Shown in pieces: positions 14,140 to 60,295 of a stretch of 64,000 nucleotides of DNA (the first letter of the stretch is position 1; each line of letters starts with the position of its first letter). The notes under the pieces were generated by a model. It made no database searches, was not told where the DNA came from, and saw nothing but the letters and a program-made list of their open reading frames with translations. This DNA is from Mobula hypostoma (taxonomy: Eukaryota): assembly GCF_963921235.1 (NCBI RefSeq), contig NC_086108.1, positions 26,662,001 through 26,726,000 of the forward strand, in the 5' to 3' direction. The translations under genes were made by a program, and so were the position numbers.

Positions 14140-14625
14140 CGCACACTCTCCATTTCTGTATTTCCATTGTGTCCCTCCCCTTCTATCACAACCCACCTCC
14201 TCTGTAGCTGCATCAGACCTCCGTAACTTGAACATCGATTTCTCGAATTTCTGGGAATGGTCTCCACTGGTCCTTTCACCTTTCCCCATCCCCTTTTCTC
14301 TCTCTCACCTTACCTCCTTGCCTCCCTCTGGTGCTCCTCCCCTTTTTCTTTCTTCCATGGCCTTCTGTCCTCTCCCATCAGACTCCCCCCTTCTCCAGCC
14401 CTGTATGTCTTTCACCAATCAACTTCCCAGCTTTTTACTTCATCCCTCCCCCTCCCATCACCTATCACCTCGTGTTTCTCCCTCCCCTCCCCCACCTTTT
14501 AACCCTACTGTCAGCTTTCTTACTCCAGTCCTGCTGAAGGGTCTCGGCCCGAAACATTGACTGTACTCTTTTCCATGAACGCTGCGTGGCCTGCTGAGTT
14601 ACTCCAGCATCTTGTGCATGTTACT
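14140..14625 (+). mobile_element. Penelope-like 3' end with decayed hammerhead
   Basis: NIDFSNF C-terminus, pyrimidine-rich UTR, cagtcctgctgaagggtctcggcccgaaacattgactg (hammerhead with core and cleavage-site substitutions). Confidence 0.8.
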
Positions 14626-16408
14626 CTGTGACTTGCCTTTGCCAATATGAATAGAGCTTTAGAAATAACTGGGTTGTTTCAGCCTTCACATTTAATGCAT
14701 AATGTATACAGTATATTCCAACATATAGCGACATTATTACTGTTATTTTGTTGATTTGTAAACAACACATCATCAATCATTGTATCAGATGGCCTTCCCT
14801 TGAGAAATGATTCTAATGTAATACATAAGATGGACGGACCTTTTGATGGAAGGGAAGTCAGTGTGGGTGGCTCCAGATATCACCCTTTTACAGACTATGT
14901 CAATGCATTTATAAAAGCCTTGTTCAATAGGGCCAAGCTATTGAAATCCATCAGCTTTCTCTCTGTCAAATGCATTGTAATGGATCCTTACAGGGTGATG
15001 AACTATTCATTGTTGCTACATAACTGCAATACACGATCACACCCACAGGAAAGATTTGTTTGCCAAACACTGCTCACTTCACTTGCAGAAAGCAATGAGA
15101 ATATTGGCTCCTATCATTTATTTACAAGTCCTTGATGCTGCTGTTCCACTAGCAGCTCCTGAGCTCCATTCAGTGTTTTCTTTTGCTGTGGTCTTCTAGC
15201 AAAGATTGCAGACTCTCGTTGCTAGTGCCTTATTGGAGTGGTGCTGTCAGGGACCACCGACTGCTGAAGCAGTGAATACTGGTCATTATTTATTCGTGTA
15301 CCTAATATTGTAATATTTACTTTTGTTTGACAGTTTTCTTGGAGTGAAAATGTGTTTAAGACAGTAGGAAGCACAATAGCCATGTTTGACTCTGGCTGAT
15401 CACAGTTGGTCAGCTGAACTCAATCATCAATTACTGGGATCAAAGAGGCCAGTTAGCTTTCTGTCTGCTCATCTGTCTGCCTATCCTCCTGACTTTCTGT
15501 TCATCTGTCCGAATGCCTATCTGTCTCTGACTGCCTGAAAGAGTTTGACAGACTCAGCGGAGCACCAGACAACTTGCCTTCTCATCAGGCTCTGGCTCCA
15601 CGCATTGTGGATTATTCAGCTAGAAAATAGATGTTTGTGTCATTTTCTGAAAGTTTTAACAGGACGAAAACCATTCTCCATTGAAATCTGTCTAACTTTT
15701 CCAGCTCAGCATTATTCAAAATTTACTGGTGTCCTTTGCACAGATAATGGTAGCATCAACATGTGTGAGACTCCCCTTTGCTGGACTCTAAGAAATTAGA
15801 TCAAAGATGTGCATCTATCATCATAGTTTTCAATTCACAGTGGGAAAGAGCAAACCTCACTTTATGCCCCTAAAGAAACATGAATTAAAGGGTCTGGTTA
15901 TCAATGTGTAGCTAACTGCACCAACCTACCTTATTTCTTAAATGTTCTGCATATTTCAAAAATTATTTCTGAGTCTTACTCGGTTTATAATTTGAATGCA
16001 AATTATTCAGCAATCCTGAAATAAAACCAAAAGTGCTCAGCATGTTGAGTAGATGAAGAGGACCAGAGTCAACCGTTTAGGTCAATGATCTTTCTTCCAA
16101 GCTGAGAAAACATAGAACCCCAATATGTTTTGAGTTGCAGAGAAAAAGGACAAGTGAGCTATCAGTTAGTTTTTGTACTTTTACACAGTACTTTTTGCAG
16201 CTAAGCACAGCATTGACAACTGTTGTGATCCCAGCATGGGGGAGGTACCTAGGCCTCTCAGTAATTTGGGGACCCACAACAAGATGGGACTGAATCTGGG
16301 TGAGTTATGGCCTTATGCACTAAGCACACTAAATGATGAAGCCACACTCAGGTTGGAGAAACAACACCTTACATTCCATCTGGGTAGCCTCCAACCTGAT
16401 GGCATGAC

Positions 16409-17907
16409 TTCAAAACTCGTTAGATTCTGGACTAGTTCCTGAGGATTGGAGGGTGGCTAATGTAACCCCACTTTTTAAAAAAGGAGGGAGAGAGAAACCG
16501 GGGAATTATAGGCCGGTTAGCCTAACGTCGGTGGTGGGGAAACTGCTGGAGTCAGTTATCAAGGATGTGATAACAGCACATTTGGAAAGCGGTGAAATGA
16601 TCGGACAAAGTCAGCATGGATTTGTGAAAGGAAAATCATGTCTGACGAATCTCATAGAATTTTTTGAGGATGTAACTAGTAGAGTGGATAGGGGAGAACC
16701 AGTGGATGTGGTATATTTGGATTTTCAAAAGGCTTTTGACAAGGTCCCACATAGGAGATTAGTGTGCAAACTTAAAGCACACGGTATTGGGGGTAAGGTA
16801 TTGGTGTGGGTGGAGAATTGGTTAGCAGACAGGAAGCAAAGAGTGGGAATAAACGGGACCTTTTCAGAATGGCAGGCGGTGACTAGTGGGGTACCGCAAG
16901 GCTCAGTGCTGGGACCCCAGTTGTTTACAATATATATTAATGACTTGGATGAGGGAATTAAATGCAGCATCTCCAAGTTTGCGGATGACACGAAGCTGGG
17001 TGGCAGTGTTAGCAGTGAGGAGGATGCTAAGAGGATGCAGGGTGACTTGGATAGGTTGGGTGAGTGGGCAAACTCATGGCAGATGCAATTTAATGTGGAT
17101 AAATGTGAAGTTATCCACTTTGGTGGCAAAAATAGGAAAACAGATTATTATCTGAATGGTGGCCGATTAGGAAAAGGGGAGGTGCAACGAGACCTGGGTG
17201 TCATTATACACCAGTCATTGAAAGTGGGCATGCAGGTACAGCAGGCGGTGAAAAAGGCGAACGGTATGCTGGCATTTATAGCGAGAGGATTCGAGTACAG
17301 GAGCAGGGAGGTACTACTGCAGTTGTACAAGGCCTTGGTGAGACCACACCTGGAGTATTGTGTGCAGTTTTGGTCCCCTAATCTGAGGAAAGACATCTTT
17401 GCCATAGAGGGAGTACAAAGAAGGTTCACCAGATTGATTCCTGGGATGGCAGGTCTTTCATATGAAGAAAGACTGGATGAACTGGGCTTGTACTCGTTGG
17501 AATTTAGAAGATTGAGGGGGGATCTGATTGAAACGTATAAGATCCTAAAGGGATTGGACAGGCTAGATGCAGGAAGATTGTTCCCGATGTTGGGGAGGTC
17601 TAGAACGAGGGGTCACAGTTTGAGGATAGAGGGGAAGCCTTTTAGGACCGAGGTTAGGAAAAACTTCTTCACACAGAGAGTGGTGAATCTGTGGAATTCT
17701 CTGCCACAGCAAACTGTTGAGGCCAGTTCATTAGCTATGTTTAAAAGGAAGTTAGATATGGCCCTTGTGGCTACAGGGGTCAGGGGGTATGGAGGGAAGG
17801 CTGGGTTCTGAGTTGGATGATCAGCCATGATCATAATAAATGGCGGTGCAGGCTCGAAGGGCCGAATGGCCTACTCCTGCACCTATTTTCTATGTTTCTA
17901 TGTTTCT
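16409..17907 (+). mobile_element. Young 5'-truncated CR1 LINE
   Basis: Uninterrupted RT ORF, CR1 3' UTR and (TTCTATGT)n tail at ~17888-17907. Confidence 0.95.
16453..17811 (+). CDS. CR1 ORF2 reverse transcriptase domain, 5'-truncated (452 aa open)
   Basis: NYRPVSLTS, QHGF, YLDFQKAFDKVPH, GVPQGSVLGP, KFADDTKL. Confidence 0.92.
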   Translation: MANVTPLFKKGGREKPGNYRPVSLTSVVGKLLESVIKDVITAHLESGEMIGQSQHGFVKGKSCLTNLIEFFEDVTSRVDRGEPVDVVYLDFQKAFDKVPHRRLVCKLKAHGIGGKVLVWVENWLADRKQRVGINGTFSEWQAVTSGVPQGSVLGPQLFTIYINDLDEGIKCSISKFADDTKLGGSVSSEEDAKRMQGDLDRLGEWANSWQMQFNVDKCEVIHFGGKNRKTDYYLNGGRLGKGEVQRDLGVIIHQSLKVGMQVQQAVKKANGMLAFIARGFEYRSREVLLQLYKALVRPHLEYCVQFWSPNLRKDIFAIEGVQRRFTRLIPGMAGLSYEERLDELGLYSLEFRRLRGDLIETYKILKGLDRLDAGRLFPMLGRSRTRGHSLRIEGKPFRTEVRKNFFTQRVVNLWNSLPQQTVEASSLAMFKRKLDMALVATGVRGYGGKAGF

Positions 17908-19067
17908 CTAACTTCCGCTAAGGCTCTACCTCCCCCTCGTACCCCATCTGTTACTTATTTTTATGCACACATTCTTTCTCTCACTCTCCTTTTTCCCCCT
18001 CTGTCCCTCTGAATATACCTCTTGCCCATCCTCTGGGTCCGCCCCCCCCTTGTCTTTCTTCCCGGACCTCCTGTCCGATGATCCTCTCGTATACCCTTTT
18101 GCCTATCACCTGTCCAGCTCTTGGCTCTATCCCTCCCCCTCCTGTCTTCTCCTATCATTTTGTATCTCCCCCTCCCCTTCCCACTTTCAAATCTCTTACT
18201 AACTCTTCCTTCAGTTAGTCCTGACAAAGGATCTTGGCCTGAAACGCCGACTGCACCTCTTCCTACAGATGCTGCCTGGCCTGCTGCATTCACCAGCAAC
18301 TTTGCTGTGTGTTGCTTGAATTTCCAGCATCTGCAGAATTCCTGTTGTTTACACTAAACCCCTCTGCATTTTTGTTCACACTCACAACAGTTCTATTGTG
18401 ACTGATTTAGAAAGAGCATTTTAAAGCTAAGACCCATTTCTCATGCACTGAGTATTGTTTGAAAACTCTCTTGTGCTACTTTTCACTGAGAAAATTAACT
18501 AGGGCAGAGGTACTAACAATTTGCCTTTATTAAAGGCAGTCGACTGAAGCAGTTATTGCACAGACTCAGAACTTACTGTACATGCAACACACACGTCACA
18601 GGGAGGGGTGATGGTTTATTGTCTTAGAAAATCATCAGGTTTTTTTCAGAAATCTGAAACTATTGGAAAATGCATTGTATTTTCTATGTATTACAGTATT
18701 TACTCAAATGTACACATTGTATTTTCTATGTTTACTATGTAACCACTGCTAGCTGAATAGAAGGTATTCACTATGTAGCCATGACTTTTGACCTGATCAC
18801 TATTAATTCATGAAGAGAACTAGAATGAAACCAAGTAGAAAGATAACGGTGGAGAGTAAGGTGATGAAATATGCTGCAGTATGTCAACGCAAGACTAATT
18901 AAGAAATAACTGTGGTTAGGGATGAGAGGACATATGGTCTAAAATGTAAACTAGGACATAATTAAGTTGGGGAGTAAAACAATAGTGGAAAGTCGAGAGC
19001 AGATATATTGATGATATGTAATCACAGGCCGACTGGATATGATAATGTAGCTAAGATAAGAAATTGC

Positions 19068-19074
19068 TATAAAA
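19068..19074 (+). promoter_or_regulatory. TATA box of the ERV 5' LTR
   Basis: TATAAAA at the expected U3 position; the 3' LTR has TACAAAA at the same site. Confidence 0.65.
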
Positions 19075-19150
19075 AATACTGTATACAAGTTTCATACATC
19101 AAAGTTGCTGGTGAACGCAGCAGGCCAAGCAGCATCTATAGGAAGAGGCG

Positions 19151-19188
19151 CAGTCGACGTTTCAGGCCGAGACCCTTCGTCAGGACTA
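19151..19188 (-). ncRNA. Minimal type I hammerhead ribozyme (Penelope-associated), core intact
   Basis: Minus strand reads AGTC-CTGACGA-AGGgtctcggCCT-GAAAC-GTC-GACT: stem I, core, stem II, palindromic stem III and GUC site. Confidence 0.8.
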
Positions 19189-19480
19189 ACTGAAGGAAGA
19201 GTGAGTAAGGGATTTGAAAGCTGGAGGGGGAGGGGGAGATGCAAAATGATAGGAGAAGACAGGAGGGGGAGGGATAGAGCCGAGAGCTGGACAGGTGATA
19301 GGCAAAAGGGGATACGAGAGGATCATGGGACAGGAGGTCCAGGAAGAAAGATGGGGGGGGGGTGACCCAGAGGATGGGCAAGAGGTATATTCAGAGGGAC
19401 AGAGGGAGAAAAAGGAGAGTGAGAGAAAGAATGTGTGCATAAAAATGAGTAACAGATGGGGTACGAGGGGGAGGTGGGGC

Positions 19481-21804
19481 CTAGCGGAAGTTAGAGAAGT
19501 CAATGTTCATGCCATCAGGTTGGAGGCTACCCAGACGGAATATAAGGTGTTGTTCCTCCAACCTGAGTGTGGCTTCATCTTTACAGTAGAGGAGGCCGTG
19601 GATAGACATGTTGGAATGGGAATGGGATGTGGAATTAAAATGTGTGGCCACTGGGAGATCCTGCTTTCTCTGGCGGACAGAGCGTAGATGTTCAGCAAAG
19701 CGGTCTCCCAGTCTGCGTCGGGTCTCACCAATATATAAAAGGCCACATCCGGAGCACCGGACGCAGTATATCACCCCAGTCGACTCACAGGTGAAGTGAT
19801 GCCTCACCTGGAAGGACTGTTTGGGGCCCTGAATGGTGGTAAGGGAGGAAGTGTAAGGGCATGTGTAGCACTTGTTCCGCTTACACGGATAAGTGCCAGG
19901 AGGGAGATCAGTGGGGAGGGATGGGGGGGACGAATGGACAAGGGAGTTGTGTAGGGAGCGATCCCTGTGGAATGCAGGGGGGGGGAGGGAAAGATGTGCT
20001 TAGTGGTGGGATCCCGTTGGAGGTGGCGGAAGTTACGGAGAATAATATGTTGGACCCGGAGGCTGGTGGGGTGGTGGGAGGATGGAGTGAGAGCAGATGT
20101 ACGTGAAATGGGGGAGATGCGTTTAGGAGCAGAGTTGATAGTGGAGGAAGGGAAGCCCCTTTCTTTAAAAAATGAAGACATCTCCCTCGTCCTAGAATGA
20201 AAAGCCTCATCCTGAGAGCAGATGCGGCGGAGACGGAGGAATTGCGAGAAGGGGATGGCGTTTTTGCAAGAGACAGGGTGAGAAGAGGAATAGTCCAGAT
20301 AGCTGTGAGAGTCAGTAGGCTTATAGTAGACATCAGTGGATAAGCTGTCTCCAGAGACAGAGACAGAAAGATCTAGAAAGGGGAGGGAGGTGTCGGAAAT
20401 GGACCAGGTAAACTTGAGGACAGGGTGAAAGTTGGAGGCAAAGTTAATAAAGTCAACGAGTTCTGCATGCGTGCAGGAAGCAGTGCCAATGCAGTCGTCG
20501 ATGTAGCGAAGGAAAAGTGGGGGACAGATACCAGAATAGGCACGGAACATAGATTGTTCCACAAACCCAACAAAAAGGCAGGCATAGCTAGGACCCATAC
20601 GGGTGCCCATAGCTACACCTTTGGTTTGGAGGAAATGGGAGGAGCAAAAGGAGAAATTATTAAGAGTAAGTACTAATTCCGCTAGACGGAGCAGAGTGGT
20701 GGTAGAGGGGAACTGATTAGGTCTGGAATCCAAAAAGACGCGTAGAGCTTTGAGACCTTCCTGATGGGGGATGGAAGTATATAAGGATTGGACATCCATG
20801 GTGAAAATAAAGCGGTGGGGGCCAGGGAACTTAAAATCATCGAAAAGTTTAAGAGCGTGAGAAGTGTCACGAACATAGGTCGGAAGGGATTGAACTAGGG
20901 GTGATAAAACAGTGTCGAGGTATGCAGAAACGAGTTCGGTGGGGCAGGAGCAAGCTGAGACAATAGGTCGGCCAGGACAGGCAGGTTTGTGGATCTTGGG
21001 TAGGAGGTAGAAACGGGAAGTGCGGGGTGTGGGAACTATAAGGTTGGTAGCAGTGGATGGGAGATCCCCTGAGCGGATAAAGTCGGTGATAGTGTGGGAG
21101 ACAATGGCCTGGTGCTCCTTAGTGGGGTCACGATGGAGGGGTAAATAAGAGGAGGTATCCGCGAGTTGTCGCTGTGCCTCGGCAAGGTAGAGGTCAGTAC
21201 GCCAGACTACAACAGCACCCCCCTTATCAGCGGGTTTAATAATAACGTTAGGATTAGTGCGGAGGGAGTGGAGAGCAGAGCGTTCCGAAGGAGTGAGGTT
21301 GGAATGGGGACAAGGTGCGGTGAAGTCGAGACGGTTGATGTCCCGTCGGTAATTAGCGATAAAGAGATCCAGAGCAGGCAGAAGACCAGAGCGGGGTGTC
21401 CATGAAGAAGAGGAGGGTTGAAGACAGGAGAAGGGGTCATCGGTGGGGGTGGAAGAGTCCTTGCCGAAGAAGTAGGCTCGGAGACGGAGACGGCGGAAGA
21501 AAAGTTCCGCATCATGGCGAACATGGAACTCGCTGAGGTGTGGGCGAAGGGGGACAAACGTGAGGCCCTTACTGAGAACAGAGCGCTCTGCCTCCGACAG
21601 TTGAAGGTCGGAGGGGATGGTAAAGACCTGGCACGGATGAGAGCTGGGATCAGAGGGGGGAGGGGGGAGGCTGGGGGTGTCAGTGGAGAGGGGAGGCTGG
21701 GGGTGAGAGGAAGATGGAGCCTCTGAGGGCCCAGGAGTTGACGGTGGGATCTGAGGAAGACGGGGCTGCGGAGTGGTGGTGGGGGAAGGGGAGACGGGAG
21801 TCAC
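19481..21804 (-). pseudogene. Penelope RT plus GIY-YIG endonuclease, frameshifted
   Basis: 666 aa ORF (KPADKGG, MDVQSLYTSI, GVAMGT, RYIDD) and separate 108 aa ORF (GVIYCVRC..C...YIGET.R.L..RF.EH); 39 bp and ~4 bp deletions relative to the right arm. Confidence 0.9.
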
Positions 21805-21942
21805 AACAGCAGCACATAAAGACCCAGTCTGGAGTTCAAGGCTGGAGTCGCAGTTGGTGGTTGCGCAATCGCTGTGAAGGTGTCCATGGTCGTTGCTGGA
21901 GTCCGGGTTTTGAATATGTCCTGAGGTGTTGGAGCCGCCGTC

Positions 21943-24474
21943 ATGTTAGGCAAAGATCGCAAGATCTTACATCTACGGACTCCAGAGCCTGCCGGCCCCG
22001 ACGCTAGCAGGCATGAACTTTCAATTGCGGCCTCTGCCATTGATCTCGGCGGCTCCAACACCTCAGGACATATTCAAAACCCGGACTCCAGCAACGACCA
22101 TGGACACCTTCACAGCGATTGCGCAACCACCAACTGCGACTCCAGCCTTGAACTCCAGGCCGGGTCTTTATGTGCTGCTATTGTGACTCCCGTCTCCCCT
22201 TCCCCCACCACCACTCTGCAACCCCGTCTCCCTCAGATCCCACCGTCAGCTCCTGGGCCCTCAGAGGCTCCATCTTCCTCTCACCCCAACCCTCACCTCT
22301 CCACTGACACCCCCAGCCTCCCCCCTCTCCCCTCTGATCCCAGCTCTCATCCGTGCCGGGTCTTTACCATCCCCTCCGACCTTCAACTGTCGGAGGCAGA
22401 ACGCTCTGTTCTCAGTAAGGGCCTCACCTTTGTCCCCCTTCGCCCACACCTCAGTGAGTTCCGTGTTCGCCATGATGCGGAACTTTTCTTCCGCCGTCTC
22501 CGTCTCCGAGCCTACTTCTTCGGCAAGGACTCTTCCAATCCCACCGATGACCCCTTCTCCTGTCTTCAACCCTCCTCTTCTTCATGGACACCCCGCTCTG
22601 GTCTTCTGCCTGCTCTGGATCTCTTTATTGCTAACTGCCGACGGGACATCAACCGTCTCGACTTCACCGCACCTTGTCCCCATTCCAACCTCACTCCTTC
22701 GGAACGCTCTGCTCTCCACTCCCTCCGCACTAATCCTAACGTTATTATTAAACCCGCTGATAAGGGGGGTGCTGTTGTAGTCTGGCGTACTGACCTCTAC
22801 CTTGCCGAGGCACAGCGACATCTCGCGGATACCTCCTCTTATTTACCCCTCCATCGTGACCCCACTAAGGAGCACCAGGCCATTGTCTCCCACACTATCA
22901 CCGACTTTATCCGCTCAGGGGATCTCCCATCCACTGCTACCAACCTTATAGTTCCCAAACCCCGCACTTCCCGTTTCTACCTCCTACCCAAGATCCACAA
23001 ACCTGCCTGTCCTGGCCGACCTATTGTCTCAGCTTGCTCCTGCCCCACCGAACTCGTTTCTGCATACCTCGACACTGTTTTATCACCCCTTGTTCAATCC
23101 CTTCCGACCTATGTTCGTGACACTTCTCACGCTCTTAAACTTTTCGATGATTTTAAGTTCCCTGGCCCCCACCGCTTTATTTTCACCATGGATGTCCAAT
23201 CCTTATATACTTCCATCCCCCATCAGGAAGGTCTCAAAGCTCTACGCGTCTTTTTGGATTCCAGACCTAATCAGTTCCCCTCTACCACCACTCTGCTCCG
23301 TCTAGCGGAATTAGTACTTACTCTTAATAATTTCTCCTTTTGCTCCTCCCATTTCCTCCAAACCAAAGGTGTAGCTATGGGCACCCGTATGGGTCCTAGC
23401 TATGCCTGCCTTTTTGTTGGGTTTGTGGAACAATCTATGTTCCGTGCCTATTCTGGTATCTGTCCCCCACTTTTCCTTCGCTACATCGACAACTGCATTG
23501 GCGCTGCTTCCTGCACGCATGCAGAACTCGTTGACTTTATTAACTTTGCCTCCAACTTTCACCCTGTCCTCAAGTTTACCTGGTCCATTTCCGACACCTC
23601 CCTCCCCTTTCTAGATCTTTCTGTCTCTGTCTCTGGAGACAGCTTATCCACTGATGTCTACTATAAGCCTACTGACTCTCACAGCTATCTGGACTATTCC
23701 TCTTCTCACCCTGTCTCTTGCAAAAACGCCATCCCCTTCTCGCAATTCCTCCGTCTCCTCCGCATCTGCTCTCAGGATGAGGCTTTTCATTCTAGGACGA
23801 GGGAGATGTCTTCATTTTTTAAAGAAAGGGGCTTCCCTTCCTCCACTATCAACTCTGCTCTTAAACGCATCTCCCCCATTTCACGTACATCTGCTCTCAC
23901 TCCATCCTCCCACCACCCCACTAGGAATAGGGTTCCCCTGGCCCTCACCTACCACCCCACCAGCCTCCGGGTCCAACATATTATTCTCAGTAACTTCCGC
24001 CACCTCCAATGGGATCCCACCACTAAGCACATCTTTCCCTCTCCCACTCTCTCTGCATTCCGCAGGGATCGCTCCCTACACAACTCCCTTGTCCATTCGT
24101 CCCCCCCATCCCTCCCCACTGATCTCCCTCCTGGCACTTATCCGTGTAAGCGGAACAAGTGCTACACATGCCCTTACACTTCCTCCCTTACCACCATTCA
24201 GGGCCCCAAACAGTCCTTCCAGGTGAGGCATCACTTCACCTGTGAGTCAACTGGGGTGATATACTGCGTCCGGTGCTCCCGATGTGGCCTTTTATATATT
24301 GGTGAGACCCGACGCAGACTGGGAGACCGCTTTGCTGAACATCTACGCTCTGTCCGCCAGAGAAAGCAGGATCTCCCAGTGGCCACACATTTTAATTCCA
24401 CATCCCATTCCCATTCCAACATGTCTATCCACGGCCTCCTCTACTGTAAAGATGAAGCCACACTCAGGTTGTAG
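21943..24474 (+). CDS. Penelope RT-GIY-YIG polyprotein (843 aa open), probably defective
   Basis: PLE RT motifs, C..C..C linker and GIY-YIG domain; catalytic motif reads YIDN; TAG at 24472 where the left arm has Glu. Confidence 0.88.
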   Translation: MLGKDRKILHLRTPEPAGPDASRHELSIAASAIDLGGSNTSGHIQNPDSSNDHGHLHSDCATTNCDSSLELQAGSLCAAIVTPVSPSPTTTLQPRLPQIPPSAPGPSEAPSSSHPNPHLSTDTPSLPPLPSDPSSHPCRVFTIPSDLQLSEAERSVLSKGLTFVPLRPHLSEFRVRHDAELFFRRLRLRAYFFGKDSSNPTDDPFSCLQPSSSSWTPRSGLLPALDLFIANCRRDINRLDFTAPCPHSNLTPSERSALHSLRTNPNVIIKPADKGGAVVVWRTDLYLAEAQRHLADTSSYLPLHRDPTKEHQAIVSHTITDFIRSGDLPSTATNLIVPKPRTSRFYLLPKIHKPACPGRPIVSACSCPTELVSAYLDTVLSPLVQSLPTYVRDTSHALKLFDDFKFPGPHRFIFTMDVQSLYTSIPHQEGLKALRVFLDSRPNQFPSTTTLLRLAELVLTLNNFSFCSSHFLQTKGVAMGTRMGPSYACLFVGFVEQSMFRAYSGICPPLFLRYIDNCIGAASCTHAELVDFINFASNFHPVLKFTWSISDTSLPFLDLSVSVSGDSLSTDVYYKPTDSHSYLDYSSSHPVSCKNAIPFSQFLRLLRICSQDEAFHSRTREMSSFFKERGFPSSTINSALKRISPISRTSALTPSSHHPTRNRVPLALTYHPTSLRVQHIILSNFRHLQWDPTTKHIFPSPTLSAFRRDRSLHNSLVHSSPPSLPTDLPPGTYPCKRNKCYTCPYTSSLTTIQGPKQSFQVRHHFTCESTGVIYCVRCSRCGLLYIGETRRRLGDRFAEHLRSVRQRKQDLPVATHFNSTSHSHSNMSIHGLLYCKDEATLRL

Positions 24475-24847
24475 GAACAACACCTTATATTCCGTCTGGG
24501 TAGCCTCCAACCTGATGGCATGAACATCGACTTCTCTAACTTCCGCTAAGGCCCCACCTCCCCCTCGTACCCCATCTGTTACTCATTTTTATGCACACAT
24601 TCTTTCTCTCACTCTCCTTTTTCTCCCTCTGTCCCTCTGAATATACCTCTTGCCCATCCTCTGGGTCACCCCCCCCCCACCTTGTCTTTCTTCCTGGACC
24701 TCCTGTCCCATGATCCTCTCGTATCCCCTTTTGCCTATCACCTGTCCAGCTCTCGGCTCTATCCCTCCCCCTCCTGTCTTCTCCTATCATTTTGCATCTC
24801 CCCCTCCCCCTCCAGCTTTCAAATCACTTACTCACTCTTCCTTCAGT

Positions 24848-24885
24848 TAGTCCTGACGAAGGGTCTCGGCCTGAAACGTCGACTG
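24848..24885 (+). ncRNA. Minimal type I hammerhead ribozyme (Penelope-associated), core intact
   Basis: AGTC(24849-52) CTGACGA(24853-59) AGG..CCT GAAAC GTC(24878-80) GACT; predicted cleavage after C24880. Confidence 0.8.
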
Positions 24886-25047
24886 CGCCTCTTCCTATAG
24901 ATGCTGCTTGGCCTGCTGCGTTCACCAGCAACTTTGATGTATGTTGCTTGAATTTCCAGCATCTGCAGAATTCCTGTTGTTTGCGTATACAAGTTTCAAT
25001 GGGCGGTCAGCTACTAGCTTTCTGATTGTCTCAGCTTTGATTTGCAA

Positions 25048-25053
25048 ATTAAA
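25048..25053 (+). terminator. Candidate LTR polyadenylation signal ATTAAA
   Basis: Present at the same position in both LTRs, downstream of the TATA box and upstream of a GT/T-rich U5. Confidence 0.55.
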
Positions 25054-25788
25054 GTTTAAAACATCTTGACGAGTTTTCTGCGTCTCCTTGTCGTTTGTGA
25101 GAAACGAGAAACCATGATAAAATTGGCCTAACAAACAGAATCGGATAGAGACCTGCGAGGAAGGGAACGGCAGATTGGGATGCTTCCCGGTCCCTCGGGG
25201 ACCCTCACGGGGCTAACAGAATTAAAGGTGCACCCAAAGAAAAAAGGTGAGCGCTTTTTGCGATAATTCGGACTAAGAATTCTGTTGGTTTTGGGGGGTC
25301 TCGGGGACTCAGAAGTGTGAAACAACTGCCGAAGGGTCTCTCCGATCCAAAGAACCTGGCAGAATTGGGGATAAAAGGAGGCTCAGAGGATTAATCAAGA
25401 GCACGGCAGTGGGGGTAAGTACGAATAAAGTAATAATATGTTAAGTAAGAAAATTCCACGTGGTGTTGGTAAGTCCCTGTGGATACCGCTTCGCATGAAA
25501 CGAAGGTCTGAACAGGCAGGGAAGGAGAATTAAAAATCCTCGTGAATACCGCCTTAAGAAGTGTAAGGGAGGTGTAAAAGGAAAAAGTTCTGTGGATACC
25601 ACCCTAAGTAGAGGTCTGCACGGGCAGAACGTAATAAGAGATAAAGATAGTTTAATAGATAATTCAGACGCTGGTGAAATAAACCATAAGGCTAGGCATA
25701 GAAATAGAATTAGAGAAATAGTATTATTAAATAGGCAAGTAGTGAGATTCTAAGAATACCATAATAGAAAAAGGAAAAAGAGAACAAC

Positions 25789-27765
25789 ATGACAGAGAAA
25801 GGAACAGCAGTAGAAATATTGAGCAGAAAATTCCCGGTGTGTAAAGGTAAGATCGCAGAAATTTCAGAAAAATGGGAAAAAAGAACTAAAAAACTGGTCA
25901 CGAAATGGCCAAGAGAAGGAACGTTTGATGTAAGCTTATGTGAGGAAATGGAAGTGCTAATTAAAAATCACAAACCCAAAGATAAATCTAAGAAAAGAGA
26001 GAAAAATGGGAACAAGAAATGGAAGTGTTAAAACTCTTTAGGATGGAGGGAGAAAGGTTAAGAAAGACGGGGAGTATATTAATAGTAAGTAAAAAAGACA
26101 CTGAGAAACGAAAGGAGCAGTCTGATAAAGAAAAGGAGAAGCATAACAGGGGGCCGGCTTCAGCTCTATACCCAGACCTGAAAGACGTAGAGAAACCTCC
26201 TCCCTATTACGAGAAAGAAACCCTCAAGCAGTGTCTGATGATAACAGGAAGAGTGGATCTAAATGGAGAAATTAAAGTCTGGGATACCGAGGAGGAAAGA
26301 AAGAATCACGAGAAGGAGCAGGAGGAACTATGGAAGGTAATAGAAGAAGACAGGGCAAAGATAGAACAGGAGAAAAGGGAAATAGAAGAAGAGATCAAAG
26401 GGTTACAGGAATTAAAAGTGAAAAGGGATGAAGAGAAATCTTTGTTATATGGGAACGGAACTGAACAGGCTAGAGCAGAAGGTAACTTGTCGGGAGAGCA
26501 AGAGTTAAGCAGCGAAAGAGAGGGTGCAGGTGAGTGTAGGTAGAGGATAGGAGATAGGAGCCTTGAAGGGGAAAAAGAGAGTGAAAAGGCAGATATTAGA
26601 AACAGAGGAAGAGATTAGGAAATTACAGCAGAGAATGAATTTCCAACGGGAGTTTGAAGATTTTGCATGGGCTCAAGCAAACGCTAGCTCAAGGCAGAAA
26701 GGAAGAACTCCACGAGGAGGCCAAGGGAGAAAGGAAACCCCGGAAAGAATCATGTGGCAGCCAGTAAAAACGTGCTCAGAAACAGATGGGGAGTCAGGCG
26801 AGGAAGAGAGTCAGGAGATGTGGGAAAGGAAAGGGAGAATGATGCCGTTGTTAGTAAAAGGATTGGGACAAGTACAGTATATTCCTTGGGGATCCCAGGA
26901 CCTGGAAGGGCTGAAAAACACCCTGCCCAGCCTACATGAGGGTGCAGGGAAGTGGATTAGGGCCTTTGAGGAAGAAACCATGGGACAAATGTTGGCTATG
27001 GGAGATTTGAAGGCGCTGCTGATAAGGCTGATGGGAACCTCCAAACTACAAGAGCTGATGGAAGTGGCTGGCATACAGAATGTGGACAGCACACTGATTG
27101 ACGGGGCCAGATTTGACACAGTGTGGCAGAAGGTATGGGGGGCCCTCAGGGAGCTCTATCCACCCAAAATGGACCCCAAAGCCATGAAAGGGGATCCACT
27201 GGGAGACACTGAAAATTCAGCAGCCTATATAGAAAATCAGTTGAAAAGGTGGAGACTGGAAACTGAACAAGAAGTGGAAGGCAACCCGTTTATGACCTGG
27301 ATGTTCCAAAATACCGTTTTGGATGCAATGCCTCCCCAAGTTAAGTCTAATCTTGAGGAAGTGGTTGGACTGATCTCAATGACCCCACAGGAATTCAGGG
27401 ACCACGTAGTCCATGCGGTCGAAAAATATAGAAAAGACAAACGAAAGTTGACTGAGCAGAAAGAAGAAGTGAAAAGAAAGCTGATACAAATGCAGCTTGA
27501 AGAGCTTAAAAAGAAGGAAAAAGAAAAAGGCAAGAAGATGCTGCCAGCAATGACCAATTTAAGCACAGCCGTTAAAGTGAATGAAATGCCATTATATGGA
27601 GGGACTGGTCATGCCGTAAGACAGAGCCTGGAAAACCCCATGCCAATAATAAACGTCTTTGGGGGAGCTTTTCTGCAAATGCTCTATCAGGGACAGGATA
27701 AATTTAAACAGCAGCACAGACAGGACTAGAAATCCCAGGGAGGGGGGCAGAGAGGTTATGGGCAG
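25789..27765 (+). pseudogene. gag: Retroviral gag, disrupted
   Basis: Consecutive ORFs 25789-26031, 26019-26543 (ALYPDL, PPPY late domain) and 26563-27729 (capsid-like YIPW...DL..LK..LP...GAGKWI..FEE); position between PBS and env. Confidence 0.8.
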
Positions 27766-27865
27766 GAAGGACCCTTTACAGTAACCAAAGCATCACCCAT
27801 CGCAGTTCAAGTAGAAGGACGCTCCACCTGGTCTATCATCTCAGTCACTGCACTAGAGCAGTTCC
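27766..27865 (+). pseudogene. pol: Integrase C-terminal (GPY/F) remnant of pol
   Basis: EGPFTVTKASPIAVQVEGRSTW / YHLSHC. Confidence 0.75.
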
Positions 27866-28023
27866 GCAGGTACAGTCAGGTGGGCCACCCGAGGTAAGTG
27901 GTGAAGAGGAACAAACAGTAGAGGACAGACAAGAGCAACAAGAAGCTGATACTGAACCATAGGAACTTGACCAAGTAATAAGGGAAATTTTTAGTCCTGA
28001 GGACAGGCCAGAAGACCCTAAGG

Positions 28024-29655
28024 ATGGGGTTATGGATGGTAGTACTCTTTCAGATAATAGGGACAACTTGAGGGCGACAAGTCCTGCGCCCCGGGATGAT
28101 ACACTCAGATACTCTCGTGCAGATTTGGAGACCATTAATTTGGCAGATGTGGCATGGGACTGTTAGGATCCCACAAAACCGGAGAGAAAGGAGTAAGAGG
28201 AGCACAACGGTTACCTCCGTACCATGGTACCAGAACATGTGATACCAATGGGCAAATTATACAGCAGGGATGATGAAGAGACAGAATTGTTATCTATGCT
28301 CAAGGGCAAGTCTGGTGCAATATGTAGTCCCCATGCCTTATAACTCCTCCTCCTGCACGCAATGGCGAAAGGAGTGGAGGGGGCAGTGTGCGCAGCAGTG
28401 TCCAAGTGTAGTCAAGACCTGCAGCATGGGAATTTGTAGCGGGACGGATCCTTGTTATCAGAAATGTATTGATAACACCCCATATTGCCCTTATTGGTGT
28501 ATGTTATACCAGGCTTCCTCGCAGTTTGATCAAAATAAGCTTGCCTCTAACTGTAATTACAGCAGACCGTGGGCTATAAATAAAATAAGCCAGACACCCA
28601 CATTGGGAAAGCTTAAAATGCAGGAACATTTGAGTTATGAACGTTTCACGCGGACAGGTGACCTCTCGGTTGGGCATTTCAATGGCAACTGTGTTAAGAT
28701 TTGGGATGTAACCCCAGGCCGAAGATACCAGACAGGTGCCCCTCTGCCCGAGGGTGCACTGAACTCCCAGACCATCCCATTAGGAGATACCTGGTGGCTG
28801 TGTGGACAGGAGGGGGGTCTGAGATCCACGCTTCCCTGTAATTGGGCGGGTACATGTACGCGTGTTATGCTGATTCAAAAAGTTGTAGTATCCCCTGAAA
28901 TACAGTTTGACACCTCGAGGCAACAGACACTAAAACAGAGGAAGAGAAAATATGAGCCCGACCTGACGATTCGGATCAATAGTATAGGACAGCCGAGGGG
29001 TATACCTAATGAGTTTAAGGCAAGAAATAAGATTGCTGCGGGCTGGGAAGCACTTATACCTGTGATAGGGGTTAGCAAAAATGTTGAATGGATAAATTAT
29101 ATGTATTATAATCAGCAGAGATTCATTAACTACACCGATGATGCACTAGAGGCTTTGAGACAGCAGATAGATGCAACCAGTAGAGTGGCGTGGCAAAATA
29201 GACAGGTACTAGACTGGCTATTGGCAGAGAAAGGAGGGGTTTGTGTAATGTTTGGGGAACAGTGCTGTGCTTTTATACCGAATAACACTAGTCCGGAGGG
29301 ATCATTTACCAGAGCAATGAATAAACTGAAAAATCTAAGAAAGGAAGTTAATCAAAATGCAGGGTTTGGACACCAGTTCTTTGACTGGTTAAATAGTAAA
29401 CTAGGAGGATGGGGAGCATGGCTGACTGAGATTGCAGTAACCATTGGTATTGTATTACTAAGCTGTGCGGTCATTCTGTGCTGTTTTCTTCCATGCCTCA
29501 AGTCGCTTGTAGTGCGAGCTGCAATGAAACGGTTTCCGATGCTTCTGGAAATTATTGGGTCGAGCCCTATGGAGAAGGAGGCACCGATGATGTATTCGTA
29601 CAGTCTACGAGACACGCAAGACGAACAGGAGAGAGATGAAATATGTGGGGATTAG
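28024..29655 (+). pseudogene. env: Retroviral envelope (gamma-type); open 28270-29655, with two in-frame TGA upstream
   Basis: Signal-like MGLWMVVLFQII at 28024, CYLC, RKRK furin site, IGQPRGIPNEFKARNKIAAG fusion region, QNRQVLDWLLAEKGGVC immunosuppressive domain, CX6CC, TM helix. Confidence 0.9.
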
Positions 29656-29885
29656 ACTGTGAAGGCTCCTGAGTCTTTTTCCCTGTCTCAGATACGAAGG
29701 GATGGGTTTTTGGCTCAGCGGCCTAGGGAGGTAGGAAGAGAACACTTTGAGTCCTAAGCGCAGGAAACTATAGTTTAACCCAAATTTGGGAGTAAATGCG
29801 GGGCTTTATTTGAGCTTTTGTGCATAGACTGTCAGTCCTCTCTCTCTCTCTGTATGAGACCCTGTGGGTCTCAAAAGGCAGATTA

Positions 29886-30448
29886 TATTGGAAAATGCAT
29901 TGTATTTTCTATGTATTACAGTATTTACTCAAATGTACACATTGTGTTTTCTAAATTTACTATGTAACCACTGCTAGCTGAATAGAAGGTATTCACTATG
30001 TAGCCATGACTTTTGACCTGATCACTATTAATTCATGAAGAGAACTAAAATGAAACCAATTAGAAAGATAACGGTGGCAAGTTAGGTGATGAAATATATG
30101 GCAGTATGTCAACACAAGACTAATTAAGAAATAACTGTGGTTAGGGATGAGAGGACATATGATCTAAAATGCAAACTAGGACATAATTAAGTTGGGGAGT
30201 AAAACAATAGTGGAAAGCCGAGAGTGGATATATTGATGATATGTAATCACAGGCCGACTGGATATGATAATGATAATGATAGCTAAGATAGGAAAATTGC
30301 TACAAAAAATGCTGTATACAAGCCTCACCGGGCAGTCAGCTACTAGCTTTCTGATTGTCTCAGCTTTGATTTGCAAATTAAAGTTTAAAATGTCTTGACG
30401 AGTTTTCTGCGTCTCCTTGTCATTTGTGAGAAACGAGAAACCACGACA
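29886..30448 (+). repeat. ERV 3' LTR
   Basis: tattggaaaatgc...gaaaccacgaca; preceded by aaaaggcagatta. Confidence 0.92.
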
Positions 30449-30773
30449 AAGGCTCATCATCTTCAAGAAATGTGAGTTGGGAGAAAATACATATTCTGTC
30501 TATTTTCTTTTTCGTTCACGCAGTTTATGCGCAAGTGAATTTTATTCCATATCTTAAGTTTTTGGCTAGTGACCTATAAAGTCTGTGAAGTTGAATTTCA
30601 GTAATCTGAGCAGCTGTAATGTGGGGGTCACCTGTACATAATAGGTAGAGCTCTTAAAGGTACATATACACACTTGTCTAAATATATTATGAAAAAAGCA
30701 AACCTGTGGAAATAATGACAATCCACATCTTAAATTACACATTTGTGAAATTCTACAATTAAATAATTATTAC

Positions 30774-38961: not shown

Positions 38962-40347
38962 TAGGGGTCGCCAACCCGTCGATTGCGTTCGACCGGTCGA
39001 TCTTTGAGACTTTCCCGGTGGATCCCGAAAAAAATCAAAAATAAATACCCAAATACTGTTGTAATGTGAGCATTATAAAAGTAAGTTATACTGATTAGGA
39101 TAATAGTAATATAGCAATATTTTCGCTACAAAGCTGTTTGTAAAGAGAGATTGTTTCTGGGTTACGGGGTTTTAGTTCCGTTCCTTCTGCCCAGTGCGCA
39201 TGTGTGTGGTTCCCCCGCCATGCACCGCGTTTTCAGTGTAGCCGGTGCTGCGTCAAAGTGACCGATCAGGTTTGATAAGAGTACAGACTGTCGCAAACAT
39301 CAATATACGGCAGTGGTCCCCAACCTCCGGGCCACGAAGAATGCAGTGGTGCAGCGGTAGTCGGGATGCACACAGCACATCTTTAAGAAAAAAAAATGAA
39401 ATAAGCAAGATAATCAATTAGCTGCCGCCTGGCACGTAAATGATGGCCCAGGTCAGAGGCGACGCAATCGGCAATCGCTTGTGATATCCTGATAGCGTCG
39501 TGGAGGTTCCACGAAAGAAGGTGAGAACGTACAAATTCCATCCAGAATGGGAAGAGGAATTTCTATTTACCTTGGTGAAAGACAAGTGTGTATGTATGTT
39601 GTGCCACCAAACACAAGCACTGACTAAAAGAGGGAATCTGGAGTGGCACCACAACACCAACCACCAGGAACTTAAAGACACCTACCCCACAAAGAGCGCA
39701 ATTCATGTCAGGAAAGTTGAGGAGCTGAAATCGGGGTTGAAGGCCCAGCAATCGTTTTCCACAAAACATTCTGCTCAAAATAAGGCTGCTATTGAAACAT
39801 CATTTCGTGTAAGTCACCTTTTGGCTAAACACAAGAAGCCTTTTACAAATGGCGATTTATTTAAGGAAGCAATGGCCATTACCGCAGAGTCTGTTTTTAA
39901 TGACTTTAAAAACAAAAGCGGCATCACAACCGCAATACATAATATACCGCTTGGCTCTGCAACAGAGACAAGGAGAGTAGAGTCATTGTCGGAGGACGTG
40001 GGTATTTTTCACTACAGTTCGATGAATCCCTGGATGTAATGCAAACAGTTCAGCTTGTTGTATTTGTCAGAATGGCTTTCCAGGATTTTACAACAAAGGA
40101 GGACTTCCTCACTCTTTTCCAATTAAAGGAGAGAACGAGAGGTGAGGATATTTACAATGATTTTAAAAAATATGTCCATGAAAATGACATCCCCATTCAT
40201 AAATTGGTGGCAATTACTACTGATGGGGCCCCAGCAATGCGCGATGTGTGCGTTAGCTTTATAGCACTAAAAGTCAGTGCCTACTTCAGGTCAACTTATC
40301 TATGTGAAATTGCATTTTCATAGATGAAAATTATTAAATCTAAGTAC
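38962..40347 (+). mobile_element. hAT (Charlie/SPIN, GTF2IRD2/ZBED-like) DNA transposon relic, internally deleted
   Basis: TIR-like tAGGGGTCGCCAAC after TGTTAGAC; BED finger (EWEEEFLF...CVCMLC...NL..HH..NH); FSLQFDES, ITTDGAPAM; then a jump to STYLCE.AFS.M..IKSK. Confidence 0.85.
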
Positions 40348-44890: not shown

Positions 44891-45739
44891 TGCTGTCCTC
44901 ACCACCAACTCAATCTGCAACCTAAAAATCCAAGTACACGATATCCACTGATTTTCCGTTAGTCTACCCTGCTTGTTATTTCTTCAAAGAATTCCAACAA
45001 ATTTGTCAGGAAAGACTTTTCCTTGAGGAAACCATTTTGATTATGACCTATTCTCTATCCATACTAGTAACTTTCCTGTAATACCATGGGCTCTTTTTAT
45101 GGTTAGTTACAATTTATTAATGTGACATACATCTTTTATGCAAATAGAAGTAAATATTTTATATTAATATGGATGTGCTAGTTTGTAGATAGATAATCTG
45201 TGTGTTCTATGAGTAAAGATTTGGGGAAAGTATGTTTCCATTATGAGCAAGGATGGGAACAAAATGGTTTCGGGTGGATGATCCAGGCACAAAGGGAATG
45301 AAAGACTGAGTATAGGAAGTGGGCCTAAGGGAGAAAATGACAATTGTTTTGGAAATTAGCTCAAGCAGCTACTGACTGAGATCTGTTTCTTTTCTTTATG
45401 TTTGCATGTTCTAAGCAATCCCAGCCTAATCAGAGACATGAGAAACAAGGAGTGGGATGCAAAAGAATTAAATTATTCATTCATTTAATATTTAACTTTG
45501 CAAAAGATGATGGGAAGACAGCAGGAAAAGAAAAGCATTTTATCCTAGCTTCTTGCTTAATAATTCTGTTTATCTATTAGCTACAAATCAGCAATTACAT
45601 AAACCCTAAAGTTTGCAACAGGTATAATAGGTTAAATAAGCAGGATCATGCAAGAGAACAGTTATGCATCAAATTAAATCTCTCTTGGCATCATGAAATG
45701 TTAATGGTCATTCAGTTGGCAGAACAAATAGATAAAGCT

Positions 45740-48700
45740 TCTAGTTTACATGGAGAAACATACCCTCGGGGTTCTCCGAGAGAGAGGGAGAATGATGGAC
45801 CCAATCGGACGGATACAGTTAATTACAGGGAACCACTACAACCAAGAGCTAGGATAAGAGGCTCTGAGTGTCCAGTGTGTTGGTGTGGGAGAGCGTTTTC
45901 CAGCATTAAAGATTTACGAGTCCACCAAGCAAAGTTGAAGTGCTATTCCATCCCAGTGGATGAAGATGAGATTACTTCACCAAGCACAGATGATGTGGTC
46001 TTTTCAACCACTGATTCACAAGCCACAGCGATTCGCTCTGGAGAGCGTCATCATACTCCAGGTCAGACGAGAGACAACTCAGGTCAGGTTTCAGCCCACA
46101 GTACCCAGGTAGATCCTTCACATAATGGCAGTGGTGTGGAGGTAGAGAAGAACAGGAAGGTCAAGTGGCCAGCAATGGCAGATGAGAAGGCTTGGTGTGT
46201 GTTTCATGAGGATATCAGTATGATGTTGGAGAACACACTCAGGGGAACATCAAAGAGAAAGTTGGAAGTGATGGGCGATATGATTTACGATGTTGGAAAG
46301 TACAGGTTTGGTTTGGTTGAGTTGATGAAAGCAAAGCCTACACAGCAACCAAGCAGGCGCCAGAAGGAGATTAGTAGGTTGAGGAGAGAGCTTAGATCAT
46401 TGAGACAGAGGTGGAAGGTAGCAAGTGAGGGTGACAAGCCAGGGCTTGCTGATCTCCGAGAGCATTTTCGAATAAAGTTAGCATCACTCCGTCATGCAGA
46501 GTCACAACGTAAAAAGAGAAAGAAGAGAGAGAAGGCAAGAAAGTTGTTCTTTGAGAACCCTCACGAGTTCACAAAGAAACTATTTGAACAAAGAAGAGCG
46601 GGCAGCTTAACATCTCTCAACAAGAACTTGAGGATCACTTGGCAAGCACTTACTCTAACGAACAGCAGGAGACATTTCAGGGCTTGTGAAGCCTACCAAG
46701 CCAGGAGTGAAGTTCGATCTGTCAGAACCCAAACTGGCAGAAGTCGAAGGGTTCCTCAGAAAGGCAAGGTCAGGCTCAGTGCCAGGACCTAATGGAGTGC
46801 CGTATAAGGTGTTCAAGAAGTGTGAACAGCTGAGGAAATACTTGTGGAGATTGTTAAAGGTGGTGTGGAGACAAGGTGTTGTTCCTTTGTCATGGAGTGA
46901 GGCTGAAGGAGTATACATCCCGAAGGAAGAGAATTCTACGACATTGAATCAGTTCTGACCAATTTCACTCCTGAATGTAGAGGGGAAGATTACGTTTGGC
47001 ATTCTGGCAAAAAGAATACCTTCATTTGTGATAGAGAATGGATTAGTAAATACATCTATGCAGAAGGCAGGAGTACCAGGCTTCCCAGGCTGCCTTGAAC
47101 ATTCTAGTATGATATGGCATACCATCCAGGAGTCAAAAAGGTTGAGAAGAAATCTGGCTGTAGTTTGGCTTGATCTGGCAAATGTGTATGGTTCTGTTCC
47201 CCATGTCCTGATTGAGTTTGCAATGGAATTCCTATGGATTCCTGCTAAGGTGAGGAACTTTGCTATGCAGTACTGCAACAATTTCCGGATGAGGTTTTCC
47301 ACTCAGTAGTTTACAACTAGGTGGCAGAGCTTGGATGTTGGAATCCCAATAGGATGTGCAATTTCACCCATCCTTTTTGTGTTAGCCATGGAGGTAATTA
47401 AAAGGGATGCAGAATCAGTGGGACCAGGTGCCGTACTTGATGGCGGAGGGAAGTTACCACCAAAACGAGTGTTCAGGGATGATCTTACCCTTTTGGGTCC
47501 CAGCACGGAGGCAGTGGAAAATGTACTATCTAGACTTGAGGAGCTAATGGATTGGGGAAGAATGAAGTTCAAGACCAAGAAGTCAAGGAGCCTTGTTCTT
47601 AGGAGAGGGAAGCTGGTTGACTTTCATTTCACCCTTTGTGGAGAGGAGATTCCATCCATTCAGGACCAACCAGTTAAGAGCCTCGGGCGATGGTACACAG
47701 AGGAGCTGAGAGACACCAAGAGGGTTCAAAAGACAGAAGAACAGATCAGCAGAGGTCTGATGTCTGTTGACAAGTGTGGCTTGCCTGGCAATTTGAAGTT
47801 GTGGTGCTTGCAGTACGGACTGATGCCACGGATAATGTGGCCACTAACTGTCTATGAAGTGGCAATGTCCCATGTTGAGGCAATGGAACGGAAGATCAAC
47901 AAGTATGTGAAGAAGTGGCTTGGAGTACCGAGCAGCCTCACCAATGTTGCAATCCACAGTAGCCAGACAAAGCTTACCATCCCAGTGCAATCCCTTGTTG
48001 AAAAGGTCAAGGTAGCCAAGGTAAGATCATTCTTGATGCTTCAAGACTCAAAAGACCCTGTCATCAAGAACACCCAGCCGGATGTGAGATCAGGCAGGAA
48101 GTGGTCAGCCTGTGTAGCAGTTGATGAGGCAGAGTCTATTTGAAGCACAAGGAGACGGTTGGGGCTATCCAGCTAGGCCACCAGGGTCTTGGATGGACAA
48201 CCTACAAGTGGTGGTCATCTTCTACAGGTAAGGAGCGCCGTGAGCTTGTAACACAAGAAATACGAGAGGTAGAAGAGGAGAAGAGGTTAGCAAAAACAGC
48301 TGGTCTGGCCAAACAAGGGGCTTGGCCCCAGTGGAAAGTGTTGAACAACAACATCTATCTTGGACTGTTCTATGGCAGATGGAACTGCATTTCTTTTCTG
48401 TGCAGAGCAGCGTACGATCTGCTCCCAACACCTGCCAACCTCAGCACCTGGTATGAAGGTAAGACAGACAGGTGTGCTGCTTGTGGTGAGAAGGGAACAC
48501 TTCAACATATTTTGAGTGCATGCAGAGCCAATCTTTCCAGCAGCATGTACATTTGGAGACATAACAATGTTCTCAAAGTTGTAACAGAAGCAGTTGACCA
48601 GAGAGTACTGCAGCACAACTTGTCTCATGCCCCATGCTGCACAGAACATCGCATATCATTTGTGAAAGAAGGCTCCAAGTCAAGGGTGTACAGCGCAGGC

Positions 48701-59755: not shown

Positions 59756-59964
59756 GAAATTATGGTTCAAGGTGAGGTGAAATTGCAAATTTTGCTTCGA
59801 AATTTTCAATTGCACATAAATTAGGAAAGATGAAACTAGAGGCTGTATCCTCTGGTTCGATCCTTGGAAGATATTTGCTTGGAGTTTGCACACTATCCCC
59901 TTGACTCTGTGGGTTTTATCTGGGTGGTCTGGCTTCCTCTTGCATCCAAAATACATACAGATTA

Positions 59965-60295
59965 ACACACATAAAATGCTGAAGGAATTCAGTAGATCAA
60001 GCAGCATCAATGCAAAAGAGTAAACAGTCGACATTTCAGGCCAAGATACTTCCTTAGGACTGAGAAGGAAGGGGGAAGATGCCAGAATCAAAATGTGGAG
60101 AAGGGTAAAGAGACTAGCTGGAAGATGATAAGTCAAGCCACATGGGAGGGAAAGGTCAAGGGCTGGAGAAGAAAGATTCTGATAGGACAGGAGAGTAGAC
60201 AATAGGAGAAACGGAAGGAGGAGGGGACCCAGGGAGAAGGAATAGGCAGGTGAGAAGAAGTAAAAGGTCAGAATGGGAAATAGAGGAAAGGGAGG
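59965..60295 (-). mobile_element. Penelope 3' tail with decayed hammerhead
   Basis: cagtcgacatttcaggccaagatacttccttaggactg at ~60025-60062. Confidence 0.7.

Follow-up and report, generated by a model that had tools for sequence, protein, structure and literature searches.

The window analyzed here, a stretch of 64,000 nucleotides (nt) of Mobula hypostoma DNA, contains a large inverted repeat that consists of two Penelope-like element (PLE) copies and lies within a long terminal repeat (LTR) of another element. The unit and its surroundings are composed of the following features:

18661–19094, forward strand: left part of the host LTR, 93.6% identical to 29886–30322 over 437 nt
19081–19094, forward strand: left copy of the target-site duplication (TSD), 14 bp
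19093–21940, reverse strand: left arm, a 5′-truncated Penelope-like copy without the tail, identified by alignment, with a reverse transcriptase (RT) carrying YIDD
21941–22046, forward strand: spacer, 106 nt of extra 5′ coding sequence of the right copy
22047–24943, forward strand: right arm, a 5′-truncated copy with an RT carrying YIDN (23491), a CX4CX2C linker, a GIY-YIG domain, and the 3′ repeat
24944–24984, forward strand: tail, 41 nt, on the right arm only
24985–24998, forward strand: right copy of the TSD, 14 bp
24985–25121, forward strand: right part of the host LTR, 92.2% identical to 30310–30450 over 141 nt
29886–30450, forward strand: sister LTR

The original prediction described 19093–21940 as the reverse complement of 22047–24943, and the alignment bears this out, with 2809 of 2897 columns identical. 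Of the 2848 paired columns, 39 carry a substitution (1.4%; 26 are transitions and 12 are of CpG type), and four gaps of 39, 4, 1, and 5 nt each represent letters absent from the left arm. The pair, 98.6% identical, turns around the 106-nt spacer. A single duplication flanks the unit, as had been predicted, but the predicted end at 24943 is too short: the right arm reaches 24984 via its 41-nt tail, giving a whole insert of 5890 nt. Besides the tail, the prediction lacked the host LTR and the mosaic inner segment.

Assignment to the Penelope-like elements is based on several features of the coding sequence. The right arm has a single open frame from the spacer to the endonuclease, with a C-terminal GIY-YIG domain in the same ORF, and an alignment reveals a PLE-type RT with the upstream LSKGL and DKG motifs. 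Pfam scores were low for both domains (RVT_1, E 4e-5, under the gathering score; PF01541, the GIY-YIG family, E 3e-4, 21.5 bits against a cut-off of 22.6). Homologues were retained for 638 of 8000 candidates, with 43–71% identity among the best 120 of the 638. The nearest listed relatives are from Chiloscyllium punctatum (P0003) and Rhincodon typus (P0065), at 71% identity; proteins of Hypanus sabinus (P0123, 74%) and Hemitrygon akajei (P0124, 80%) match over the N-terminal part and share the long Pro/Ser linker with the present family. These four chondrichthyan proteins are annotated merely as uncharacterized, and the comparison was made at the protein level. The relationship points to a ray as the probable host. 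In the linker of P0123 and P0124, a segment of ~32 residues is tandemly repeated, and the present family has one copy of it. A PDB sequence search returned 0 matches, and a metagenome scan with P0001 gave 116 pattern matches and 0 confirmed relatives.

Both arms carry the motif CKRNKCYTC between RT and endonuclease. It has the CX2-5CxxC form of the zinc-finger-like linker that serves as the Neptune criterion and is common to Nematis (PMC8557442). Judged from these sequence features, the element would be an endonuclease-bearing, Neptune-type Penelope-like element whose linker fits the Neptune/Nematis criterion. The 3′ repeats contain a further candidate feature in each arm:

19152–19187, reverse strand: putative minimal hammerhead-like motif of the left arm, a pattern match
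24849–24884, forward strand: putative minimal hammerhead-like motif of the right arm, read from the sequence

The right-arm motif comprises an AGUC stem I, CUGACGA, an AGG/CCU stem II, GAAA, CG, GUC, and GACU, and the core letters and stems I and II are present in the 3′ repeats of both arms, in line with the minimal hammerhead described for PLE terminal repeats (PMC4209133). The Rfam search gave no hammerhead match and a single chance match, and the right-arm motif is absent from the lowest-energy fold of the single strand (z 0.38).

Both arms are truncated at the 5′ end, with ~140 N-terminal codons missing, and neither has a direct pLTR upstream of a full-length ORF. The pLTR occurs in full-length insertions only and these copies are truncated, so its absence shows an incomplete element and not one outside the family. 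The 5′ end, near which PLEs can retain a spliceosomal intron, is missing in both arms. The left arm has a 39-nt deletion near 20075 and a 4-nt frameshift near 19981, both ahead of the endonuclease, with its GIY-YIG part at 19484–19999. In the right arm, YIDN replaces YIDD, an early stop lies at 24472, and the ORF ends at 24549. The prediction that each arm covers the whole RT and endonuclease thus stands insofar as both DNA regions are spanned, but neither arm is intact or full length; as predicted from their reading frames, neither can make the full protein, and the unit is apparently a dead fossil. The 39-nt deletion of the left arm (20066–20075; right-arm place 23912–23950) is flanked by two copies of a 10-nt word, the pattern expected of a microhomology deletion, and the missing letters are present in contigs of the family.

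The spacer had been interpreted as extra 5′ sequence of the right copy, a reading that the coding sequence upholds. It encodes the end of the N-terminal helical domain and the start of the linker, and the best of its six frames against the H. sabinus homologue is the forward frame that continues the right ORF. The pairing of KDRKILHLRTPE in the spacer with KDCKIFHLQTPE in H. sabinus scores 50, a value reached by 1 of 1000 shuffles, and the spacer region has multi-copy depth in the family contigs. By the score of a 12-residue N-terminal motif, a weak measure and a poorer test than the frame comparison, the spacer ranks 1st of 8054 windows in the unit and 32nd of 70,849 in the whole stretch; an N-terminal profile from 52 long homologues found no match anywhere in the window. 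In the Hypanus protein the spacer motif falls at residue 144, and in the 52 long homologues it follows a median of 140 residues. The 5′ truncation points of the two arms are 106 nt apart.

The sequence GTATACAAGTTTCA has two exact matches, at 19081–19094 and 24985–24998, and occurs once with 2 mismatches, at 30314–30327 in the sister LTR. A shuffle control is weak when taken alone (6 of 100 shuffles give at least 3 matches at 2 mismatches); the weight of the TSD call derives from the exact positions at both ends of the unit. The last 2 nt of the left copy (19093–19094) also match the end of the left arm, so that TSD and arm overlap there. The same 41-nt tail that ends the right arm also ends a third copy of the family at ~18311–18350, and at the point where the left arm ends, family contigs continue into tail sequence (loose ends before 19096). 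As a feature of PLE membership, a one-end tail of 41–43 nt is present on the right arm only, compared with published tails of 30–40 bp, and the outward-pointing 3′ ends of the two arms are 41 nt apart in the family sequence. When the reverse complement of the TSD is compared with the start of the tail (24942–24955), 8 of 14 letters match, as do 23 of 1104 14-mers of the LTR; an event of ~2%, it is a weak hint of primer–RNA pairing at the left nick.

The flanks of the unit are consecutive parts of a single LTR, colinear with the sister LTR and not mirrored, and host and sister LTRs differ at 30 of 557 columns (5.4%). With its single target motif, the sister LTR serves as an empty site. The host element extends over 18661–30450, its LTRs being ~5–7% apart, and has an env ORF at 28243–29655 (TLV_coat, E 1e-15). 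The ORFs at 25992–27729 gave no clear Pfam match and are gag-like in our reading; only ~0.5 kb separates them from the env ORF, too little for a pol gene, and the element looks like a non-autonomous endogenous retrovirus-like element. Among the contigs described below, one from organism A matches 18360–18690 with 0 differences and one from organism B covers 18360–18699 with 7 differences. The latter crosses the LTR start, which makes the host element older than the split between A and B.

Contigs from 4 of 24 listed runs (two samples; organisms A and B) were aligned to 18360–22046. The variant display comprised 40 of 186 rows, 30 inside the arm and 10 outside, and some differences are uncounted; depth shares from the contigs are rough, site 21559 giving 21% and 95% in two runs of one sample. 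Site 19352 was excluded from the count of shared rare letters because it adjoins a poly-C gap, and site 20784 from the lineage count because of a conflict between the two organism-B runs. The two arms agree at 16 of the 30 displayed arm sites; at the other 14, the family letter is found in the right arm. Of the 16 letters in common, six account for 0.04–3.9% of the depth in both organism-A runs:

20420–21135, reverse strand: six rare alleles shared by the arms, spanning 715 nt, with right-arm places 22852–23567

Three of the six alter residues away from the family letter (D310H, F442V, and A548V). Sharing of such rare alleles indicates that the two copies were not drawn independently from the family. 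Minority subfamily letters, too, are found in both arms as far as the 3′ end (19149, 19221, 19282, and 19799). Another eight shared letters make up 20–67% in A and mostly 0.2–6% in B, with one site up to 18%, which suggests that the insertion postdates the A/B split, in a display that favors such rows. By contig depth the family is very abundant, and, by a rough estimate, the depth at the truncation points reaches ~2.5% of the 3′-end value.

Differences between the arms are concentrated next to the turn:

21350–21940, reverse strand: inner left-arm segment of 591 nt with 21 of the 39 arm differences; its boundary falls between 21246 and 21350

Divergence is 3.6% in this segment and 0.8% elsewhere (binomial p 5e-6; changepoint score reached in 0 of 10,000 simulations), with a boundary picked after the data had been seen. 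When clustered changes are merged, the excess is weaker (12 of 27 events, p 0.005; 0.044 after correction for the scan). Three inner changes at 21692–21699 resemble a similar run ~25 nt downstream and may be one slip. Arm differences at 21738 and 21559 involve letters that are both common in the family. Rare letters number 0 shared and 8 left-only in the inner segment, against 6 and 4 outside it (Fisher p 0.013). Assigned from family shares and outgroup residues, the derived changes of the inner segment number 11 in the left arm and 3 in the right, with 1 polymorphic and 6 open; outside, they number 5 and 7, with 6 open. The inner excess sits on the left arm (p 5e-5, for a boundary chosen afterwards), and the difference between the 11:3 and 5:7 splits is not significant (Fisher p 0.11; 13 of 39 not assigned). 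The higher divergence of the inner part points to a second donor or to later conversion. Two readings remain: either another copy supplied the inner part of the left arm, or the left arm represents a single minority lineage along its whole length and the inner part of the right arm came from a consensus-like copy.

Taken together, the single TSD, the one occurrence of its motif in the sister LTR, the one-sided tail, and the six shared rare alleles argue strongly that both arms were laid down in one integration, as originally predicted, and we hold this with high confidence. Among mechanisms, the best candidate, to which we give roughly an even chance, is reverse transcription from two nicks with one source, the inner segment having a second donor. 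A Penelope-like element would have inserted into the LTR of the older env-bearing element, with a dimeric RT–endonuclease cutting the two target strands 14 nt apart and both target 3′ ends priming reverse transcription. The right nick would prime at the distal start site and keep the tail; the left nick would prime at the proximal site, without the tail and with a 2-nt match to the target end. Both cDNAs would copy the same RNA, or sister RNAs of a single source copy, stop ~0.4–0.5 kb before the ORF start, and be joined end to end, the second strands then being filled in by repair. In one arm, the inner 0.6 kb would have come from another donor, via a template jump near the end of synthesis or by later conversion, and both arms would have decayed after insertion. 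A more specific scenario is put forward tentatively, namely that both arms derive from one source copy at opposite nicks and that one RT switched, ~0.6 kb before the turn, to an RNA from another subfamily. If so, the inverted arm would be a second cDNA and not a fold-back copy. How PLEs build inverted arms, a step still called undefined in the PLE papers as far as their accessible text goes, could be tested genome-wide and at allele level with the long pairs of this very large ray family.

Biochemical precedent for two-nick priming comes from an Anolis PLE protein, a predicted dimer that in vitro cleaves both target strands and extends them, starting from two adjacent RNA sites one tail length apart (PMC11167929); the one-sided 41-nt tail found here matches the published PLE tail of 30–40 bp (PMC8557442). 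Against it, this precedent is a Poseidon-clade element for which no inverted products were made, the truncations are only 106 nt apart although few copies reach that point, which independent RNAs would rarely achieve, and the support from the inner excess weakens in the merged and derived-change analyses. The proximity of the truncation points is accounted for directly by a fold-back, which also explains the symmetry better and is the main rival, though less probable than priming at both nicks. The right nick alone would prime on the RNA, the truncated cDNA would fold over a 106-nt loop and extend itself into the left arm, and the 2-nt match would serve to join this arm to the left target end, with the inner 0.6 kb later converted from another copy or mutated during repair near the center. 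A single step would then account for the near-symmetric turn, for the origin of the spacer as extra 5′ sequence of one copy, and for the rare alleles present in both arms, and self-priming of the antisense strand has been proposed for head-to-head PLE junctions (PMC3846280). At the turn, however, no priming match is visible (cDNA end ...AACATGA against ...TTGATCT; a match of 1–2 nt is possible), and the part made first should be the most alike but is the least, at 3.6%, so that a second event is needed. A fold-back also gives no reason for the stop 41 nt short of the tail end, which two RT start sites do.

Two unrelated RNAs could have been used in one event and then homogenized by gene conversion between the arms, the inner 3.6% being the original difference; like the two preceding readings, this is a single integration, and we regard it as improbable. 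The clustering of the six shared rare alleles within 715 nt resembles a conversion tract, the three residue changes depart from the family letter, and the inner 3.6% is smaller than the 5.4% between the host LTRs. Yet drift of ~1.8% per arm before conversion would lead one to expect, by estimate, 20–30 shared rare letters in the outer 2.26 kb, where 6 are displayed; the minority subfamily letters are shared to the 3′ end; and the symmetry of the turn is left unexplained. An artefact of assembly or library, whether a fold-back chimera or misjoined repeats, is very improbable. Such structures do trouble assemblies (PMC8557442; PMC3846280), and none of the displayed contigs bridges 19093 or 21940|21941, an observation neutral on the assembly, most pieces and joints (562,944 and 1396, respectively) being undisplayed. 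The 39 substitutions, their transition and CpG classes, and the four gaps, with family letters on either side, speak against an artefact, as do the unmirrored flanks colinear with the sister LTR, the exact TSD, and the one-sided tail. Misassembly is unlikely, and errors that would leave no trace are limited to the phase of the inner variants and the direction of the spacer. It is equally hard to credit that the site was hit by two separate insertions, or that a single copy later underwent inverted duplication at the DNA level. In favor are the high abundance of the family and the ability of PLE proteins to target their own pLTR (PMC11167929), but the turn has no second TSD or target remnant and both outer ends adjoin the same TSD. 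Moreover, the arms have rare alleles in common, and the left end coincides with the tail boundary instead of falling at a random point.

In L1 twin priming, both target nicks prime and the product is an inversion within one TSD, its two parts being adjacent, non-overlapping pieces of one RNA. The present unit is likewise an inversion within one TSD; unlike an L1 product, its arms both start at the 3′ end and overlap almost wholly. Within the PLEs, an inverted 5′-truncated copy at the 5′ end together with a one-end tail of 30–40 bp is described as common (PMC8557442; PMC8969392), which agrees with the earlier statement that an inverted, 5′-truncated partner is a known layout. In the accessible text of PMC8557442 and PMC3846280, the PLEs described, including Pen2a_Av and Pen2, resemble the present unit in having an inverted 5′-truncated copy directly at the 5′ end, flanking inverted repeats, a one-end tail, one short TSD, and a slightly asymmetric turn, and Pen3/Pen4 form long tandem or inverted structures. 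Their TSDs are 8–10 bp, compared with 14 bp here, and the inverted copies measured in these sources are pLTR-sized (~180–220 bp), compared with ~2.9 kb for both arms here; unlike the published inverted-repeat insertions, the present unit has no direct pLTR. The Poseidon element PAc of Anolis carolinensis (PMC11167929) shares two ends one tail-length apart, an AT-rich target, and a minimal hammerhead upstream of the ends, which here is putative and uncut in both arms. PAc differs in belonging to another clade without the zinc-finger linker, and its inverted product was not reconstituted; in the present unit, RNA and left target end agree at 2 nt (8 of 14 across the TSD). The literature search, with most subscription journals, figures, and supplements beyond its reach, found neither a census of arm lengths in PLEs nor a paper on PLE palindromes in elasmobranchs, and the accessible text of PMC12910113 and bioRxiv 10.64898/2026.07.22.740005 contains nothing on inverted arms. 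Comparable cases may be present in the figures and supplements of PLE papers.

The unit is a long example of a published, ordinary type of PLE insertion, for which the predicted "unusually large" is plausible. In yeast, lengthening the spacer of Alu inverted repeats with 320-bp arms from 12 to 100 bp lowers recombination ~300-fold (PMC10164571). By analogy with these repeats, whose arms are only 320 bp, strong instability of a unit with 2.9-kb arms appears doubtful. A 5.9-kb inverted repeat, 98.6% identical around a 106-nt spacer, has persisted long enough for ~0.8% differences to accumulate between the outer arms. With arms of 2.9 kb, variable sites are numerous enough for templates to be traced, unlike in pLTR-sized inversions; a survey of such pairs could distinguish two-nick priming from fold-back and reveal the frequency of later conversion.

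The window also contains other repeats. The third family copy, at 16330–16407 plus 17904–18350, is short, has the tail and a possible TSD of 6–8 bp but no inverted arm, and is split by a CR1-like RT piece (16408–17907) that is 97–99% identical to 61842–63154. Older 3′-end fragments related to the family, at 71–73% identity, lie at 14409–14613 (forward strand) and 59964–60071 (reverse strand). Old LINE-like copies at 1–2538, 51806–54393, and 60339–63767 occur in both directions with 73–80% mutual identity, the third of them being split by the younger CR1-like piece (61842–63154). A LINE-like element at 45581–48706 has a 403-aa frame without a Pfam match, followed by RVT_1 and zf-RVT pieces. A 184-aa frame at 39485–40039, with a Spin-doc zinc finger (E 1e-5, under the cut-off), is probably the remnant of a DNA transposon.
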